A stretch of 64,000 bases of DNA from Gemmatimonadota bacterium (GCA_039588275.1 JBDHAC010000028.1:1782-65781); one strand, 5' to 3'; shown: positions 35,337 through 43,066, counted from the first letter of the stretch. The notes: generated by a model from the letters alone, not told the origin. A program made the numbers and translations.

Positions 35337-35939
35337 ATGGCATTCATCGATTACGTGAACGAGGACGAGATCCCACCCGAAGACCGGGTGCCGGACCACG
35401 ACAACATCGTCCGCATTCACGGCGTACACAGCCACACCATGCGCCAGCACTACGATCTGTATCGCGAGCTGATGTACGCGAAGGGGCCACTCACTCGAAT
35501 CCAGCGCGAGATGATCGCTGTCGTCGTGTCGGCGGAGAATCGGTGCAAGTACTGACTGCTGCACCACGGGGAGGGTCTCCGTCGACTGCTGGAAGCCAAG
35601 GGGATGACCCCGGAGCCGCGAGAAGCGCTTCTCACCGCGCTGGCTATCGATCGGGAGGGTGCCGACCTGACGCCGCCCGACCGCGCGATGCTGGATTACG
35701 TCGTGAAGCTGACGCTGACGCCCGGTGATATCGGAGAAGCGGACGTCGATGCCCTGCGCGCGCACGGGTTCGACGATCGCGGGATCCACGATATCTGCGC
35801 CATCACGGCGTATTACGCGTTCGTAAATCGGATGGCCGACGGTCTCGGGGTCGAGCTCGAGCCCGACAGGAGCGACACGCTCGCGCGCGGACCCGGGTTC
35901 GATGGATCAGGCGGCGGCCAACCCGACGGCGACGCATGA
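35337..35939 (+). CDS. AhpD/carboxymuconolactone-decarboxylase-like peroxidase-related protein, predicted selenoprotein (in-frame TGA 35553-35555 read as Sec in a C-K-Y-U motif)
   Basis: Track ORFs 35337..35555 and 35604..35939 are in the same frame, separated by a single TGA. The joined sequence reads ...MIAVVVSAENRCKY-TGA-LLHHGEGL..., with the TGA at the second Cys position of the family CxxC motif. Downstream family motifs are intact. A SECIS-like hairpin follows. Stop overlaps the trpA start (ATGA). Confidence 0.7.
35567..35584 (+). other. candidate bacterial SECIS hairpin
   Basis: Begins 11 nt after the TGA. Pairs C67-G84, G68-C83, G69-U82, (G81 bulge), G70-C80, G71-C79, A72-U78, G73-C77. 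Apical loop GGU (35574-35576). Confidence 0.45.
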
Positions 35940-36703: not shown

Positions 36704-38003
36704 GGAGATCCCCGACACGGGTTCCACCCGGGCGGGGGAGGAAGACGGGCGCCTGGGGAGCCTCGCGCGCCTCTTCCTGAAGCTGGGGTTCCTGGCGTTC
36801 GGCGGACCGGCCGCCCACGTGGCCATGATGGAGGACGAGGTCGTGGCCCGCCGCCGCTGGCTGTCGCGACCTGCCTTCTTGGACATCCTCGGCGCGACGA
36901 ACCTCATCCCCGGCCCCAACTCGACCGAGATGGCCATGCACGTCGGGTGGCGGCGAGCCGGGACGCGCGGGCTGGTGGTCGCCGGGGCGTGCTTCATCGG
37001 CCCGGCAGCCCTCATCACGGGCGTTCTGGCATGGGCGTACCTCCGGTACGGTGCCCGCCCGGAGGTCGGACCCTTCCTGTTCGGGATCAAGCCTGCGGTC
37101 CTGGCCGTGATCCTGATCGCACTCTGGCGGCTGGCGCGCGTGGCGGCGCGAACCGCGCCTCTCGCCGGGCTCGGTGCGGCCGTGGCGCTGGCCGCGCTCG
37201 CGGGCGTGAACGAGATCTTGGCTCTCCTCGCGGGCGGCCTGCTCGGCACCCTGGCGGCGCGCCCCTGGAGCCGCAGATCCGGCCCCACTGTGGGACCGCC
37301 GCCCGACCTCGCGGATGCCGGCGAAGCCGATCGCGACGAGCGTGCCGATGAGGATGAGGGTGCCGATGAGGACGGGGGTGTCGATGAGGACGAGCGTGCC
37401 GACGAGGAAGAGGGGGGGCACCCGGGTCCGGCGGCTGTCCTCCTCGCCCCTCCGGTGGCCGCCGGGTGGATGGCCGCCGGCGCTCCGCTCTGGACCCTGG
37501 GGCTGTTCTTCCTCAAGGTCGGGGCCGTGCTATACGGGAGCGGCTACGTCCTCGTCGCTTTCCTCGAGGGCGATGTGGTGGGGCGCTATGGCTGGCTGAC
37601 GCGACCCGAGCTCCTCGATGCGATCGCGATCGGCCAGTTCACCCCGGGACCGGTGCTCTCGACCGCGACTTTCGTCGGCTACCTGGCGGCGGGCCCGGCG
37701 GGCGCGGTCGTCGCGACCATCGGCATCTTCCTCCCGTCGTTCGTGTTCGTGTCGATCCTGGGTCCGCTGGTGCCCCGGCTGCGCGAGTCGGCGTGGACGG
37801 CCGCGTTTCTGGATGCCGTGAACGCCAGCGCGGTCGGGTTGATCGCCGCCGTCACCGTGAGCCTCGGCGTGGCCACGCTCGTGGATTGGCGGGCGTGGGC
37901 GATCGGTCTCGCGGCCGCCGCAGCCGGGCTGATCGGGAAAGTGGGCAGCGTCTGGCTCGTACTGGGGGGTGCGGTCATCGGCTGGGCGCTCGGGCTCTTC
38001 TGA
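36696..38003 (+). CDS. chrA: chromate ion transporter (CHR family), two CHR halves joined by an acidic repeat linker
   Basis: ORF 36627..38003. GTG 36696 is the likely start (8-nt overlap with trpA). LGFLAFGGPAAHVAMMEDEVV...LIPGPNSTE in half 1; FLKVGAVLYGSGYVLVAFL...QFTPGPVLSTATFVGY in half 2. Confidence 0.85.
   Translation: MTEEIPDTGSTRAGEEDGRLGSLARLFLKLGFLAFGGPAAHVAMMEDEVVARRRWLSRPAFLDILGATNLIPGPNSTEMAMHVGWRRAGTRGLVVAGACFIGPAALITGVLAWAYLRYGARPEVGPFLFGIKPAVLAVILIALWRLARVAARTAPLAGLGAAVALAALAGVNEILALLAGGLLGTLAARPWSRRSGPTVGPPPDLADAGEADRDERADEDEGADEDGGVDEDERADEEEGGHPGPAAVLLAPPVAAGWMAAGAPLWTLGLFFLKVGAVLYGSGYVLVAFLEGDVVGRYGWLTRPELLDAIAIGQFTPGPVLSTATFVGYLAAGPAGAVVATIGIFLPSFVFVSILGPLVPRLRESAWTAAFLDAVNASAVGLIAAVTVSLGVATLVDWRAWAIGLAAAAAGLIGKVGSVWLVLGGAVIGWALGLF
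37326..37415 (+). repeat. in-frame 18-bp tandem repeat, 5 units, encoding acidic hexapeptides (ADRDER ADEDEG ADEDGG VDEDER ADEEEG)
   Basis: Units GCCGATCGCGACGAGCGT / GCCGATGAGGATGAGGGT / GCCGATGAGGACGGGGGT / GTCGATGAGGACGAGCGT / GCCGACGAGGAAGAGGGG, read directly from the sequence. Confidence 0.85.
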
Positions 38004-38119
38004 CCGCCTCAGACGGTTGCGCCTCGTAACCCGCGAAGGACGTACCTCCGCCACCCGGTCCGCCGCATCCGCGGCCACCTCGCCTCGACGCCGACGTCCC
38101 GCCTGCCGATAATACGGGC

Positions 38120-38419
38120 GTGAATTCCGCACCAGAGGACAGGGACCGAGGCCCCGGCAACGTGCGGCGCTGGCTTCGTGCCGCTCGCGAGATCTACGAG
38201 GGCATGTACATCGCCCCCTACCGTTCGGCGATTCACCGGGAATACCTGCGCCAACACGATCTCTTCCTGCTCGTCGGATTCTCCGACCTTCTCGGTGTGC
38301 CCAACCCGGTCCAGTTCTATACGCTCGAGCTGTATCCGGAGCTGCTGGAGGCGTTTCACACCTGGCACCTCCGGATGGGGCTCGAGCACCCGCCGGAGGG
38401 AGGTTTCCGCTGTTGCTGA
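38120..38419 (+). CDS. small protein ending in ...EGGFRCC-stop (C-terminal Cys-Cys)
   Basis: 99-aa ORF with good third-position G/C. 7-nt overlap with the downstream ArsA-like gene. The C-terminal GG-x-R-C-C resembles the tail of the CstA-associated YbdD/YjiX (DUF466) proteins. Start uncertain (GTG 38120 or ATG 38204). Confidence 0.6.
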   Translation: MNSAPEDRDRGPGNVRRWLRAAREIYEGMYIAPYRSAIHREYLRQHDLFLLVGFSDLLGVPNPVQFYTLELYPELLEAFHTWHLRMGLEHPPEGGFRCC

Positions 38420-39426
38420 GCCCCGATAGCGTGCTCCCGGACCGGCCCATCCTCTTCTTCGGGGGGAAGGGGGGCGTCGGAAAGACCACGCTGGCGGCCT
38501 CGGCGGCGCTCGGCCTGGCGGCGCGGGGCCACCGTACGCTGCTCGTGTCCACCGACCCGGCTCACTCGACCGGAGACATCCTGCAGGCCGATCTCGGCGC
38601 GGAGCCCCGCCCCGTGATCGCCGATTGCTGGGCGATGGAGCTCGATCCTGAGCGTGAGGCGGACCGGTACATCGAGGAGGTCAAAGCTCGTGTCGCTACC
38701 GCGGCGCCACCGCGCCTGGTCGCCGAGGTCGAGCGTCAGATCGACATCGCTCGCGTCTCCCCGGGAGCCGTGGAGGCTGCCCTGTTCGAGCGATTCACGC
38801 GCATCCTCGAGGAGGAAGGGAAGGATTTCGACCGGATCGTGTTCGACACGGCGCCGACCGGTCAGACGCTCCGTTTGCTCTCGCTCCCCGAGCTCATGAC
38901 GGCGTGGATGACCGGCATGATCCAACGCCGCAAGAAAGTCGGGGCGCTCACGCGCATGTGGAGGAACGTGGCGGGGTCGGCCGCATCCGATGCCGAGCGA
39001 GAGGACCCGGTCCTCGCCGCGCTCGAGGATCGGCGCGCCCGTTTTCACCGCGCCCGTCAGACGCTGACCGCCCCGGAGCGGGCCGCGTTCATCTTCGTGG
39101 TGATCCCCGAGCGACTCCCCATCTGGGAGACCGAGAAGGCGGTGGAGACGCTCTCGCGTCACGCAATTCCGGTCGGGGCGATCATCGTAAACCAGGTACT
39201 TCCGCCTCCAGCCGTCGAAGATGGTGGCGCGGCGTTCATGGAGGCCCGAAGGGAGCGCGAGGCGCTCTACCTTGCGAGGATCTCGCGTGACCTCGGAGAT
39301 TGGCCAGTCCTCTGCGTCCACCTGCAGGAGACCGATCCAGTGGGAATTGACGCCCTCAAGGAGCTGGCGGGCGGGATACGCCCGGCCCCGCCCGAGTGGG
39401 GCGACCGCATGGAGGAGGGGCGGTGA
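38413..39426 (+). CDS. ArsA/GET3-like P-loop ATPase (single domain)
   Basis: Deviant Walker A FFGGKGGVGKTT; STDPAHS; DTAPTGQTLRLLSLPE. Stop overlaps the cstA start (GTGA). Confidence 0.88.
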   Translation: MLSPDSVLPDRPILFFGGKGGVGKTTLAASAALGLAARGHRTLLVSTDPAHSTGDILQADLGAEPRPVIADCWAMELDPEREADRYIEEVKARVATAAPPRLVAEVERQIDIARVSPGAVEAALFERFTRILEEEGKDFDRIVFDTAPTGQTLRLLSLPELMTAWMTGMIQRRKKVGALTRMWRNVAGSAASDAEREDPVLAALEDRRARFHRARQTLTAPERAAFIFVVIPERLPIWETEKAVETLSRHAIPVGAIIVNQVLPPPAVEDGGAAFMEARREREALYLARISRDLGDWPVLCVHLQETDPVGIDALKELAGGIRPAPPEWGDRMEEGR

Positions 39427-41213
39427 GCGCGATCGTACTCCTTGTCGTCGGTGTCTCGGCGTTCCTCACGGGATACCACGTGTACTCCCGCTTCATCGCC
39501 CGCCGCATCTATCAGCTGGATCCCGACTTCGTCACGCCGAGCCACGAGTTCGAGGACGGGGTGGACTACGTCCCCACGAACAAGCACGTGCTGTTCGGGC
39601 ACCACTTCACATCCGTGGCGGGGGCGGCGCCGATCGTCGGCCCGGCGATCGCGGTCATCTGGGGTTGGCTCCCGGCGTTCCTGTGGGTGACGATCGGGAC
39701 CGTGTTCGCGGGAGCCGTGCACGACTTCGGGACGCTGTGGATCTCGACCCGGCACAAGGGCCGCTCCATCGGCACGCTCACCGAGTCGATCGTCGGTGAC
39801 CGCGCGCGGGTGCTGTTCCTCCTCTTGATCTTCTTCCTGTTGCTCATGGTGAACGCGGTGTTCGCGGTCATCATCGCCAACCTGTTCATGGGGAACCCGG
39901 GTGCCGTGCTCCCCGTGTGGGGGTCGCTCGTCGTCGCCCTCATCGTGGGTTTCCTGATCTATCGAACCGGGGCGGGGATCCTGCTGCCGTCGCTCGGGGC
40001 GCTGGCGGTCCTCTACCTGATGATCTGGTTCGGTCAATACGTACCCTTCGAGCTACCGGACCTGATCGGGTTCGGGCCCACCGAGGCACAGCTGACGGCG
40101 GCAGGTGGGGACGCGGCCGTGGCCGCGGAGGCGGCGAACGCGGACGGGCAACGCGTGGGTTGGATCATCGTCCTGTTCATCTACACCTTCTTCGCCTCGG
40201 TCTTGCCCGTGTGGCTACTCCTCCAGCCGCGCGACTACGTGAACGGCCACCAGCTGTTCGTGGCGCTCGGGATCATCGGTGCAGGGGTCATCGTGACGAA
40301 CCCGGAGGTGGTCGCGCCGGCGGTGAACACGAACCTCCCCGGCGACGCGCCCAGCTGGTTCCCGTTGCTGTTCATCACGATCGCGTGTGGCGCCATCAGC
40401 GGGTTCCACGGGCTCGTGGGCTCCGGGACCTCCTCCAAGCAGTTGAACAAGGACACGGACGCGCGCTACGTCGGGTACGGTGGGGCGCTGGGGGAGGGGA
40501 CGCTCGCCGTCACGTCGATCATCGCGTGCACGGCCGGCTTCGCGGTCTTCGTGGGGCTCGACGGTTGGCACACACATTACGGCAGCTGGGCCTCGGCCTC
40601 GGCCGGCGCGACGGCCGCGTTCGTGAACGGGGTGGGCGTACTGGCGGAGGGAATCGGGATCCCCAGCCGGGTCGCCACGATCTTCGCGGCGGTCGTCGTG
40701 ATCAGCTTCGCTGCCACCACGCTCGACACCAGCATCCGACTCCAGCGCTACATCATCGGGGAGCTGGGCGTCGAGTATCGGGTCAAGCTCGTCCAGAATC
40801 GCTGGGTAGCGACCCTGGTCGCGGTCGTCGCATGCGCGCTCCTCGCCCTCGGCCTGGACCGGGGCGCCGGCGGCATGCGGATCTGGCCGCTGTTCGGCAC
40901 GACCAACCAGCTACTGGCGGGTCTCAGCCTCCTGATCATCACGCTGTTCCTGTTTCGCCAGAAGCGGCCCGTGTGGGTGACGATCATCCCCATGACCTTC
41001 CTGCTCATCATGACCACCTGGGCGATGATCCTGAACTTGCGCCGGTTCGCGGGCGAGAGTCAGACGCTCCTGCTCGTGGTCGGAGGCGCGATCTTCGTGC
41101 TCGAGATCTGGCTCCTGTTCGAGGCGGTGGCCGCGATCCGGCGCGTACGCGGGTTGCGGCACTCGGAAGACGCGGCGCTGGCGACCGCGGTCGAGGACCG
41201 AGGGGCTCCCTAG
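39423..41213 (+). CDS. cstA: carbon starvation protein A family transporter
   Basis: ORF 39396..41213; GTG 39423. VPTNKHVLFGHHFTSVAGAAPIVGPAIAVIWGWLPAFLWV and multiple TM segments typical of CstA. Confidence 0.92.
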   Translation: MSAIVLLVVGVSAFLTGYHVYSRFIARRIYQLDPDFVTPSHEFEDGVDYVPTNKHVLFGHHFTSVAGAAPIVGPAIAVIWGWLPAFLWVTIGTVFAGAVHDFGTLWISTRHKGRSIGTLTESIVGDRARVLFLLLIFFLLLMVNAVFAVIIANLFMGNPGAVLPVWGSLVVALIVGFLIYRTGAGILLPSLGALAVLYLMIWFGQYVPFELPDLIGFGPTEAQLTAAGGDAAVAAEAANADGQRVGWIIVLFIYTFFASVLPVWLLLQPRDYVNGHQLFVALGIIGAGVIVTNPEVVAPAVNTNLPGDAPSWFPLLFITIACGAISGFHGLVGSGTSSKQLNKDTDARYVGYGGALGEGTLAVTSIIACTAGFAVFVGLDGWHTHYGSWASASAGATAAFVNGVGVLAEGIGIPSRVATIFAAVVVISFAATTLDTSIRLQRYIIGELGVEYRVKLVQNRWVATLVAVVACALLALGLDRGAGGMRIWPLFGTTNQLLAGLSLLIITLFLFRQKRPVWVTIIPMTFLLIMTTWAMILNLRRFAGESQTLLLVVGGAIFVLEIWLLFEAVAAIRRVRGLRHSEDAALATAVEDRGAP

Positions 41214-41341
41214 GTCCAGGTCACAGGATGCTCGCACGCTCTCGATCCCGGAGGCTGAACGACGGTCATCCTGCCTCTGACCCCAACGAGCGGCCCCGGC
41301 CTCGAAAGAAGGCCAAAAAGAAGGCCAATTCGTACGCCGAT

Positions 41342-41386
41342 GGGGACATTTTATCTGAAAAGTTTCAGCTGAAATGTCTTGTCCCC
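41342..41386. other. AT-rich extended hairpin between the convergent cstA and NFACT-family genes (possible terminator or protein/RNA site)
   Basis: GGGGACATTT-TAT-CTGAAA-AGT-TTTCAG-CTG-AAATGTC-TTGT-CCCC, about 16 paired positions. No U-tail on either strand. Confidence 0.4.
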
Positions 41387-41467
41387 GGGTCCGAGCGTTT
41401 CGGCTCACTCCCTCATCGGGGCGCCCCGGAGCGCGCCCAAGGTGAGCGACATACCCGCGACGTAAAC

Positions 41468-43066
41468 CTAGGACTCTAGCCGGAGGCGCTTGACCAGACC
41501 CTCGTCCGGCTCCACGAAGACCGTCTGCACGCGCTCCGCCACCACCCTGCCCGGCGGTGATTTGCGCGGCTTGCGGACGTATTTGCGCCGAGTCCAGTTG
41601 ACCGCCGCGGTCCCGCTGTGACGGGCGCCGCTGTGCACGGCCGCGACCGTGGCCGCCTCGAGCAGATCGCGCTGCGCCGGGTTCTCCTCCTTTCGTCCCC
41701 ATCGGAGGATCACGTGCGCGCCCTGCACCTGCCGCGCGTGCATCCAGATGTCCTCGGGTGACGAGTGGTGCAGCGTCAGCGCATCGTTGTCGCGCGCGCC
41801 GCGGCCGACGCGGATCTCGAGACCTCCGGTCGAGCGAAAGCGATGGTACGGAAGGCGGGGCTCGGGGCCCGCACGTCCGGGCTCGCGCCCCGAGGCGGGC
41901 GTGCGTCCCACGAGCTCCCACAACTCCTCGCTCGGCCCATCGCCTGCAAGCGTCTCGGCCCCGGCCCTGAGGGTTTCCAGCCGCCGCTCGTTCTCGGCGA
42001 TCTCCGTCGGAATCCCACGCCTGATGGACGGCTTGTGGGCGAGAATCAGCTGGCCGTTCAACCGAGGCTCCTCAGGCGACCGGGCTGCCTCTCGCTCTCG
42101 TTCGAGGGCGGCCAGCCGGCGCTCGATGCGCTTCACGCGACTCGCAAGAGCCGCGCCCAGGTGCGCGGCCTCATCGTCCGTCTCGGGCTCTACCTCGCCG
42201 CCCGCCGCGCCGAGCGCGAGGAGACTCCCGACGCCGCCCGCCGCCTCGGTCGACGCCTGCATCGCGTCCAGCAGGGAGGGCATGGCCACCGCACCGGGCT
42301 CCTCCAGCGACGAGGCGTACGGTTGCGACCCCAGCGTCCGCTCGAGCAGCCAGGCACCTCCCGTGGAGCACTCCTCGAGCAAGCTCTCGTATCGGGAGAA
42401 CGCCTCGCGAAGCGCACTCTCGTCGGAGTCGGTCACGGCCGTCCCGAGCACCCAATCGATGTTCAGCGCGCTCAGGTAGGCCCATTCCCGGAGTGCGGCC
42501 CCCCTTCGGTCGGCGGGTTCGACGGAAGCCAGCGACGCCATCCAGGCCTCCACATCCCGCGGCCTCGCGGCGCCGCGGCGGGGGTTGGCGGGCGCTGCGT
42601 ACGTAGCGCCGGGCTCCAGACGGCGCTCGCGGATGACTCGCCGCCAGAGGACGCGGTCGATTCGCCACTCGATCTGGTCTGTCCCCGGCTGGGCGTCGCC
42701 CCTTGGCGACAGGAACAACAAGTTCCACTGGTTCGTCTGGAGCTCGGCAGAGATACGGTGCCGCGGGTTGGAGGACGCGTCCGAGAGCGTGAGGAGCAGG
42801 GCTCGCTCGTCCAGCGGCGCCTCGACGGCGCTGAGGAACAACCGCCGGAAGCGAAGACCTTCGGCGGAGAGCAGAGGCTCCACAGCCAGTAGCTGCCCCG
42901 CCTGCGGATGCAGTGTGGCGAGGAGGGCCGAGCCATCCTCGAAGCGCAGCTCCCCCACCCGCCGGGCCGGATCAAGGGCCAGCGAAGCTACGCGGACTCC
43001 CTCCCACCGGGCTCTGATCTCCTGAGCGAGGGCGGCCGTGAGGAGCGGATCGTAACGAACGGGCAT
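41468..43066 (-). CDS. NFACT-family protein (fibronectin-binding protein A / RqcH-like, DUF814)
   Basis: ORF 41468..43270; ATG 43066 gives MPVRYDPLLTAAL. C-terminal DUF814/NFACT-R: GLEIRVGRGARDNDALT...DIWMHARQVQGAHVIL. Confidence 0.8.
   Translation of the reverse strand: MPVRYDPLLTAALAQEIRARWEGVRVASLALDPARRVGELRFEDGSALLATLHPQAGQLLAVEPLLSAEGLRFRRLFLSAVEAPLDERALLLTLSDASSNPRHRISAELQTNQWNLLFLSPRGDAQPGTDQIEWRIDRVLWRRVIRERRLEPGATYAAPANPRRGAARPRDVEAWMASLASVEPADRRGAALREWAYLSALNIDWVLGTAVTDSDESALREAFSRYESLLEECSTGGAWLLERTLGSQPYASSLEEPGAVAMPSLLDAMQASTEAAGGVGSLLALGAAGGEVEPETDDEAAHLGAALASRVKRIERRLAALEREREAARSPEEPRLNGQLILAHKPSIRRGIPTEIAENERRLETLRAGAETLAGDGPSEELWELVGRTPASGREPGRAGPEPRLPYHRFRSTGGLEIRVGRGARDNDALTLHHSSPEDIWMHARQVQGAHVILRWGRKEENPAQRDLLEAATVAAVHSGARHSGTAAVNWTRRKYVRKPRKSPPGRVVAERVQTVFVEPDEGLVKRLRLES

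Follow-up and report, generated by a model that had tools for sequence, protein, structure and literature searches.

A three-gene operon for a Cys-Cys-tailed small protein, an ArsA/GET3-like ATPase and a CstA-family carrier in a Gemmatimonadota genome, and a probable selenocysteine branch of the small-protein family

This study examined a plus-strand operon in a 64,000-nucleotide (nt) stretch of DNA from a Gemmatimonadota bacterium (the window, to which all coordinates without a locus label refer). The operon encodes a small protein with a Cys-Cys terminus (CC-star), an ArsA/GET3-like ATPase and a CstA-family carrier, and it is almost certainly a member of the cstX (CC-star)-arsA homologue-cstA module, which is known from comparative genomics because Castillo and Saier described it in 2010 (Int J Microbiol 2010:187373, PMC2963123). 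The window locus itself is an ordinary member of this module. The new finding of this analysis lies in the wider family, where one branch of the small protein probably ends in selenocysteine-cysteine (Sec-Cys), with a hairpin resembling a selenocysteine insertion sequence (SECIS) past the stop codon. In the working model that we prefer, with a probability of about 0.6, the small protein would serve the carrier as an accessory subunit with a chemically active tail, on which the ATPase would act.

The operon and its published relatives

The features of the operon are as follows; the two Shine-Dalgarno-like sites are read from the sequence.

38085..38113, plus strand: promoter-like site (TCGACG, 17-nt spacer, GATAAT) ending 6 nt 5' of the GTG of the small gene; consensus match only
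38120..38419, plus strand: cstX / cory-CC-star / DUF7990 gene; GTG start, 99 aa, TGA at 38417-38419
38395..38403, plus strand: Shine-Dalgarno-like GGAGGGAGG for the ArsA-like gene
38413..39426, plus strand: ArsA/GET3-like ATPase gene; TTG start, 337 aa, TGA at 39424-39426
39411..39420, plus strand: Shine-Dalgarno-like GGAGGAGGGG directly 5' of GTG 39423
39423..41213, plus strand: cstA; GTG at 39423-39425, 596 aa, PF02554 match

The source genome assembly comprises 4.1 Mb in 103 contigs. An initial annotation of the window had described the three genes as a chain of overlaps, and its coordinates were all right: the TTG at 38413 gives the ATPase gene a 7-nt overlap with the small open reading frame (ORF), and the stop codon of the ATPase gene and the GTG of cstA share the GTGA at 39423-39426. 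The 3' GGAGG of GGAGGGAGG sits 9 nt 5' of the TTG and is embedded in the codons for the ...EGG... of the small-protein tail, and the element may have a role in translational coupling. An in-frame GTG at 39396 provides an alternative start of cstA (605 aa vs 596 aa); GTG 39423 is the likely start, since GGAGGAGGGG lies just upstream. The promoter-like site is a weak match, found once where 0.3 were expected in shuffled sequences, and no terminator-like site was found within 37800-41600.

Castillo and Saier reported 26 genomes with a gene cluster of cstA and a single-domain ArsA homologue (~330 aa); in 24 of these 26 the cluster also encodes a protein of ~90 aa, CstX, the evolution of which parallels that of both CstA and the ArsA homologue (PMC2963123). 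Their cstA-cstX-arsA clusters lack ars genes, the ArsA homologues lack the ArsA cysteines, and archaeal versions add a membrane protein, CstY. Among ArsA clusters 14-18 of the same paper, clusters 17-18 list Idiomarina, Alcanivorax, Chromohalobacter, Pseudomonas stutzeri and Bacillus, and the genera of these two clusters match the CC-star loci found here. The window products (99, 337 and 596 or 605 aa), adjacent and co-oriented, fit the operon definition of Castillo and Saier, although the window has the order cstX-arsA-cstA and most non-Gemmatimonadota loci of this study have cstA-cstX-arsA. The initial annotation had proposed an undescribed functional dependency among the three products, but the operon had already been published from genomes. 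CstX was treated in that paper as a protein with a single transmembrane segment, whereas hydropathy and the AlphaFold2 (AF2) model obtained here argue for a soluble hairpin; the paper does not mention a Cys-Cys terminus, DUF466 or selenocysteine. The equation of CstX with CC-star made here relies on position, size and taxa and not on a direct comparison of the sequences. No later literature on CstX or DUF7990 was found.

The small ORF scored 103.1 bits, against a cut-off of 80, with the NCBIfam profile NF041419 'cory-CC-star', covering positions 2-80 of the 80-position profile; the name 'cory-CC-star protein', which the initial annotation had mentioned as a family name of the Prokaryotic Genome Annotation Pipeline, therefore exists and fits the product. 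All 120 listed homologues of the small protein carry a precomputed match to Pfam PF25952 (DUF7990). The 99-aa product ends ...HPPEGGFRCC before the stop, exactly as had been read in the DNA, so that Cys98-Cys99 forms the free carboxyl terminus. An AF2 model built from 49 sequences (predicted local distance difference test, pLDDT, 84) has helices at 13-53 and 65-85, followed by an unstructured tail of 14 residues (block pLDDT 70), and the small protein is accordingly predicted to be soluble, a hairpin of two helices that carries a flexible tail. Its first helix is its most hydrophobic stretch, and a Kyte-Doolittle scan with a 19-residue window, with a maximum of 1.3 in the window protein and a family median of 1.16, indicated no transmembrane segment. 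No relative of the small protein was found in the Protein Data Bank (PDB), either by sequence or by Foldseek.

A species-level scan, with one genome per species, gave at least 594 loci in at least four phyla, of which the best 80 were fetched. The terminal Cys-Cys is present at all 80 fetched loci and in all 20 copies from the phylum of the window, which without exception end [E/D/A]GG[F/Y]RCC; loss of the pair in orthologues, which the initial annotation had named as evidence against its idea, was thus not seen among them. Among 118 unfiltered representatives of 50%-identity clusters, 74 carry the terminal CC, many of the other 44 being short or apparently frameshifted. The ends found in other clades are SPLDHFRCC, SPLGxLPCC and QYDFCC; the GG-x-R is therefore specific to a clade, and only the terminal CC is invariant across the family. 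We also considered the tail Gly-Gly as a mere by-product of the embedded ribosome-binding site, which is not the whole explanation, because GG[FY]RCC is kept in 20/20 phylum copies, several of which have an ATPase start tens of bases past the stop. The main CC-star clade also conserves a FHxWH...CC pattern. Separately, in other Acidobacteriota (L169-L172 and other weak matches), cstA-like and arsA-like genes enclose divergent paralogues of the small protein, often in tandem, that lack the Cys-Cys end (e.g., ...SDAMF).

The ATPase belongs to the TRC40/GET3/ArsA subfamily by its matches to TIGR00345 (273.9 bits, cut-off 135) and PF02374 (248.6 bits), and it scored 166.4 bits with the true-ArsA profile TIGR04291, below the cut-off of 650. 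Its nearest solved structures are ARSA1 (5zme, 1e-69) and the archaeal Get3-type ATPases 3zq6 and 3ug6, followed by ArsA (1f48). The P-loop GKGGVGKT and DPAHS motifs are present, with DTAPTGQ in place of the usual DTAPTGH; among 77 aligned ATPases the last position is His in 62 and Gln in 15, namely the window protein and 14 others. The codons for this TGQ, which is part of DTAPTGQTLRLL, lie at 38860-38868. The alignment of the 77 proteins contains no conserved Cys column and no Get3 CXXC zinc site. These features identify the ATPase as an intact, single-domain enzyme of the Get3/ArsA fold that has no conserved cysteine, and it probably forms a homodimer.

The module has likenesses to two known ATPase systems. 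As in the ArsA-ArsD-ArsB arsenite pump, an ArsA-fold ATPase is encoded together with a small vicinal-cysteine protein and a secondary carrier; ArsA, however, consists of two homologous halves (~580 aa) with Cys113/Cys172/Cys422, whereas the module ATPase is one domain without those cysteines, its carrier is unrelated to ArsB/Acr3, its small protein is unrelated to ArsD, and arsR and arsC are missing. With Get3/TRC40/ARSA1 the ATPase shares the best match among solved structures, the single domain and a helical insert after switch II, but the module has neither the CXXC zinc site nor a tail-anchored client, the partner being a soluble hairpin with a Cys-Cys tail.

The cstA product, the only CstA of the source genome, gave a split match to PF02554 (497.5 bits) and 262 bits with the equivalog profile of E. 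coli CstA (NF011590), far from its cut-off of 1188. The model of an orthologue, the CstA of locus L062 (m45ad347730f7), has a LeuT/APC fold and resembles LeuT, LAT, NKCC and NRAMP-type carriers in Foldseek, with a probability of 1.0 and a TM-score of up to 0.65; the PDB holds no solved structure of the CstA family. On this basis, the window CstA is modelled as a LeuT-fold secondary carrier of what we call the short CstA clade. The GHHF and ACGAISGFH motifs of the window CstA are family-wide, GHHF and ACGAxSGFH being common to E. coli CstA, BtsT and most of the partnerless CstAs checked. For the most part, the Cys and His that are invariant in CstA (GHHF, HD, ACGAISGFH) likewise occur across the family, and no conserved Cys was found beyond that of ACGAISGFH. 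No module-specific Cys partner for the tail was found in either the ATPase or CstA, Sec-type loci included. Two apparent natural fusions, ArsA-CstA at L045 and CstA-CC-star at L092, were rejected, as each contains a stop codon.

The conserved gene pair and the clades of the carrier

The small gene was found in 20 of the 151 sampled genomes of the Gemmatimonadota; the ATPase gene adjoins it in 19 of these 20, and cstA is visible within the 1.5-kb flank in at least 15. An ArsA-like gene lies beside the small gene at all 77 loci with enough flank (3.4 kb away at L041) and at 24/24 Acidobacteriota loci. This adjacency is far beyond chance. The best 80 loci come from Gemmatimonadota, Gammaproteobacteria (Idiomarina, Halomonas, Rheinheimera, Shewanella, Alcanivorax and Pseudomonas), Bacillota and Acidobacteriota, and all three genes are present at these loci wherever the contig allows. 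The conserved three-gene unit seen in the window therefore recurs widely, and it does so in two gene orders: the window type, cc-arsA-cstA, in most Gemmatimonadota, and cstA-cc-arsA elsewhere. A sample of 401 Acidobacteriota yielded 24 family members, 12 of which, with RCC, KCC or Sec-Cys ends, adjoin cstA.

The CC-star/ATPase pair is the invariant, translationally coupled core of the module, with cstA up- or downstream of it in most lineages, since a subclade of Acidobacteriota ending LPCC, to which we return below, keeps the pair without an adjacent cstA. Some other arrangements were observed. At L071 (4312-9109), from a Natronospirillum metagenome-assembled genome, the order is cstA-cc-arsA-cstA, with cstA on both sides of the pair, and the same double-cstA arrangement occurs at the Acidobacteriota loci L143, L145, L150 and L152. 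Locus L129 (G298:C59, 2839-5142) encodes a short CstA, a divergent CC-star-like domain (29.7 bits), an ArsA-like protein and a 221-aa hydrophobic protein that probably spans the membrane; this locus may be the bacterial equivalent of the archaeal arrangement with CstY.

Many bacteria have CstA and BtsT as their main carriers of pyruvate and peptides. In E. coli K-12, the gene orders are cstA-ybdD and btsT-yjiX-yjiA, and the small DUF466 proteins YbdD and YjiX end GGKGGARCC and GKGGMRCC, respectively; the GGxRCC tails and the yjiA gene of the BtsT locus had been given correctly in the initial annotation, as had the flagging of DUF466 as a putative selenoprotein family, PF04328 being named Sel_put. 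Several findings have linked DUF466 with CstA in the literature: YbdD is required for CstA-dependent pyruvate uptake (PMC5847655), and DUF466 genes are cofit with cstA-like genes (bioRxiv 10.1101/072470). DUF466 proteins end in RCC, with Lys-Cys-Sec in Campylobacter (bioRxiv 10.1101/2022.07.06.499078).

The window protein does not obviously resemble YbdD, as had been noted at the outset. It has no match to PF04328 at E<=1, and an hhalign comparison of 49 CC-star with 30 DUF466 sequences gave a probability of 8.9%, with only 28 tail columns aligned. No DUF466 gene was found in the source genome. The two families are alike in being small cytoplasmic proteins encoded beside a CstA-family gene, in a GG-x-[R/K]-Cys-Cys-COOH end, in Sec variants within the terminal dipeptide, and in two conserved His residues, which are invariant in DUF466. 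They differ in size (65 aa in DUF466, ~90 aa in CC-star), in the carrier (a clade of ~700 aa for DUF466, one of ~560-610 aa for CC-star), in the ATPase, which is not obligatory for DUF466, and in the order of the Sec variant (Cys-Sec in DUF466, Sec-Cys in CC-star). The [R/K]-Cys-Cys end and the cstA neighbour reflect a resemblance to DUF466 in function and layout, not membership of that family.

The carriers were compared in a sample of 201 Gammaproteobacteria genomes, 27 of which have a CstA; the CstA match in genome G299, at a contig end, was left out of the partner classes. The 15 complete long CstAs (~700 aa, continuous Pfam match) belong to exactly the 15 genomes that carry DUF466, and the DUF466 gene lies just 3' of the long CstA in 13 of the 15. 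Nine CstAs of the sample are short (~560-610 aa, most with a split Pfam match): three are accompanied by CC-star and the ATPase, one is a divergent case, and five have no small partner. In the CstA tree, the DUF466-linked carriers form one clade (Shimodaira-Hasegawa-like approximate likelihood-ratio test, 100), and the CC-star label needs three changes. Partner type therefore follows the CstA clade. A YjiA-like gene was found within 1.5 kb at none of the 15 DUF466 loci in this sample, and yjiA beside yjiX thus looks lineage-specific. The initial annotation had seen a recurring module of CC-tailed peptide, NTPase and CstA built from partly non-homologous parts; a CC-tailed partner beside a CstA-family carrier does recur, but an NTPase is not a general part of the DUF466 version.

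A probable selenocysteine branch

The first lead to a Sec-type protein was a cluster representative two residues short, with the DNA reading CGC TGA TGC TGA. In total, 33 clusters end two residues early at ...SPLEGF[R/T/Q/G/K]. Eleven distinct loci, from Acidobacteriota and metagenomes, read x-TGA-TGY-stop and lie in cstA-cc-arsA operons wherever the contig shows the neighbours. The sites, in the coordinates of each locus, are as follows.

L133: 481-515, Sec-type site
L134: 5271-5320, Sec-type site
L135: 5280-5329, Sec-type site
L137: 5280-5329, Sec-type site
L154: 1732-1781, Sec-type site
L175: 3271-3320, Sec-type site
L176: 3292-3341, Sec-type site
L177: 481-515, Sec-type site
L178: 3271-3320, Sec-type site
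L179: 3261-3310, Sec-type site
L180: 3310-3359, Sec-type site

A hairpin of 7-11 bp begins 3-8 bases past the stop at the Sec-type loci and places its apical loop 20-23 nt after the UGA; the loop has GGC or GGU and, in two cases, CGGGA or GGUCA. Compensatory changes were found in 8 of 9 pairs, and 90.7% of the alignment cells pair, compared with 40-67% in slid controls; the hairpin score was reached by none of 500 shuffles. Only 1 of the 80 Cys-Cys loci has a stem of at least 7 bp with a loop starting GG, and there at a different position. Folding energies over the first 45 nt have a median of -9 kcal/mol at Cys-Cys loci vs -24 kcal/mol at Sec-type loci. The hairpin has no match in Rfam. In the family tree, the Sec label is clustered, with Cys-Cys relatives interleaved.

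These data suggest that the TGA-type branch is probably a subfamily of selenoproteins ending Sec-Cys-COOH, the mirror image of the Cys-Sec-COOH of DUF466. As the genes are two residues short in public gene calls, the subfamily was probably missed by annotation. The Sec-Cys variant speaks for redox or soft-metal chemistry at the terminal pair. SelB is encoded in the one genome with a Sec-type copy that was examined. As a means of telling Sec-type genomes apart, however, SelB was rejected: it is present in all 24 Acidobacteriota tested and in the genome of the window and, since Cys-type genomes tested also carry it, is necessary but not discriminating. The SelB of the window's own genome is at G000:C34:39710-41572 (L139; 364 bits, cut-off 242). 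With SelB, this genome can decode Sec, and its CC-star protein still ends in Cys-Cys.

Two unrelated small proteins with the same terminus thus serve different CstA clades, both families have selenocysteine versions of the terminal pair, and CC-star is always paired with a Get3/ArsA-type ATPase. The question is thereby sharpened: whether thiol or selenol chemistry takes place where a LeuT-fold carrier faces the cytoplasm, and what role a bacterial Get3-type ATPase has there. The convergent Cys-Cys/Sec tail and the obligatory Get3-type ATPase make the wider family worth experiment.

Working model, alternatives and neighbouring genes

In the working model, the small protein would act as an accessory subunit, providing the carrier on its cytoplasmic side with a reactive arm (a dithiol or selenol-thiol) and doing for the short-clade CstA what YbdD and YjiX may do for the long-clade CstA and BtsT. 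The ATPase dimer would bind the helical hairpin and, at the expense of ATP, load the arm, reset it or place it on the carrier, so that uptake of a pyruvate- or peptide-like substrate would become dependent on ATP as well as on the thiol or metal state. The parts of this model differ in strength. It is likely that the small protein acts with CstA as an accessory; that its tail works by redox or metal chemistry is slightly favoured; and that the ATPase acts on the small protein, instead of directly energising transport, is put forward tentatively, at somewhat less than even chances.

Several observations weigh against this model. At all 12 loci of the LPCC subclade (L155-L166, in genomes G588, G688, G409, G498, G568, G648, G707, G791, G608, G534, G668 and G598), the ATPase gene is adjacent and no cstA lies within 1.5 kb, each genome encoding its CstA elsewhere, so the pair may have partners besides CstA. 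At no fewer than four of these loci, the gene 3' of the pair is DinB-like, with Pfam DinB_2 confirmed in one (L155); the upstream neighbours vary (DUF5916, M61 peptidase). Conversely, the carrier can exist alone, since the short-clade CstAs of L124-L128 have no small partner at all. The two conserved histidines of FHxWH are missing from divergent CC-ending members, and thus a His2Cys2 metal site cannot be universal. An AF2 model of the read-through pseudo-fusion CstA-Gly-CC-star of L062 showed no confident docking, although this is a weak test, judged without coordinates or predicted aligned errors; CstA was well folded in it, and the CC-star part had a pLDDT of 63-84, with an unstructured tail at 63. 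DUF466 was found in 0 of 50 CC-star genomes, but this is not significant alone because the base rate is 15/201 (7.5%), and the clade-by-clade match of partners is the better evidence.

The published alternative is that the ATPase energises CstA, with CstX as a linker (PMC2963123), as ArsA does ArsB. The proton symporter would become a primary, high-affinity uptake system in starvation, CstX would be a mechanical coupler, and the Cys-Cys tail would be a docking detail. The gene trio and the three-protein co-evolution reported by Castillo and Saier, the intact ATPase motifs of the 77 sequences and the tight linkage to cstA in most clades are all in keeping with such a pump. However, the invariant free Cys-Cys-COOH, swapped for Sec-Cys with a SECIS-like hairpin, suggests tail chemistry over docking, the CC-star/ATPase pair also occurs unlinked from cstA, and long-clade CstA works with YbdD and no ATPase. 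Considering also that the nearest solved relatives of the ATPase are Get3-type chaperones, not ArsA, we regard this pump as unlikely. The same relatives, ARSA1 and the archaeal Get3-type ATPases, would suit a role in biogenesis or targeting, in which the Get3-like ATPase would pick up the small helical protein, or segments of CstA, for delivery to or assembly at the membrane, as Get3 and ARSA1 do with tail-anchored proteins. The Met-rich region after switch II (LPELMTAWMTGMIQRRKK), read directly from the sequence, the hydrophobic first helix of the small protein and the additional membrane protein CstY of the archaeal versions could be explained in this way, but CC-star has no transmembrane segment by the hydropathy values given above, its polar C-terminus ending in Cys-Cys is unlike a tail anchor, and the CXXC zinc site of Get3 is absent. 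We know of no precedent for a dedicated chaperone of a single polytopic LeuT-fold carrier, which also counts against this role, and it appears quite improbable.

A pair of metal or metalloid chaperones comparable to ArsD-ArsA seems the least probable of the alternatives, and indeed highly unlikely. In such a pair, the Cys-Cys end would hand a soft metal to or through the ATPase, and CstA would be the conduit of a metal-ligand complex, not of pyruvate or peptides. Vicinal Cys pairs bind soft metals and metalloids in ArsD and at the C-terminus of MerA, YjiA is a COG0523 metallochaperone GTPase, FHxWH...CC is conserved in the main CC-star clade, and DUF466 too combines two invariant His with CC. 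Against this, the ATPase lacks the metalloid cysteines of ArsA and any conserved Cys, the operon contains no ars genes or arsR (the flanking genes were inspected as well), the histidines are lost in divergent CC-ending members, and YjiA-like genes are absent from 15/15 other DUF466 loci. Returning to the accessory-subunit model, a broader form of it would hold that CstA-family carriers depend on a reactive C-terminal 'swinging arm', a dithiol or selenol-thiol supplied in trans by a small subunit, which evolved twice from unrelated proteins, as DUF466 in the long clade and as CC-star in the short clade, that a Get3/ArsA-fold ATPase was recruited in the second case to drive the cycle of the arm, and that the arm/ATPase pair is portable beyond cstA, as at the LPCC loci, no fewer than four of which have a DinB_2 thiol-transferase-like gene after the pair. 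This generalisation is speculative, and we consider it rather doubtful in its full extent.

The operon is flanked downstream by an NFACT-family gene on the opposite strand and upstream by a gene for a chromate transporter (PF02417; 36627-38003, plus strand), the product of which carries an acidic run, DEGADEDGGVDEDERADEEE, in the loop between its halves. Further upstream, between trpB and trpA, a CMD/AhpD-like gene (35337-35939, plus strand) contains an in-frame TGA at 35553-35555, which would give C-K-Y-U (CxxU, where U is Sec), and its product is a probable selenoprotein.

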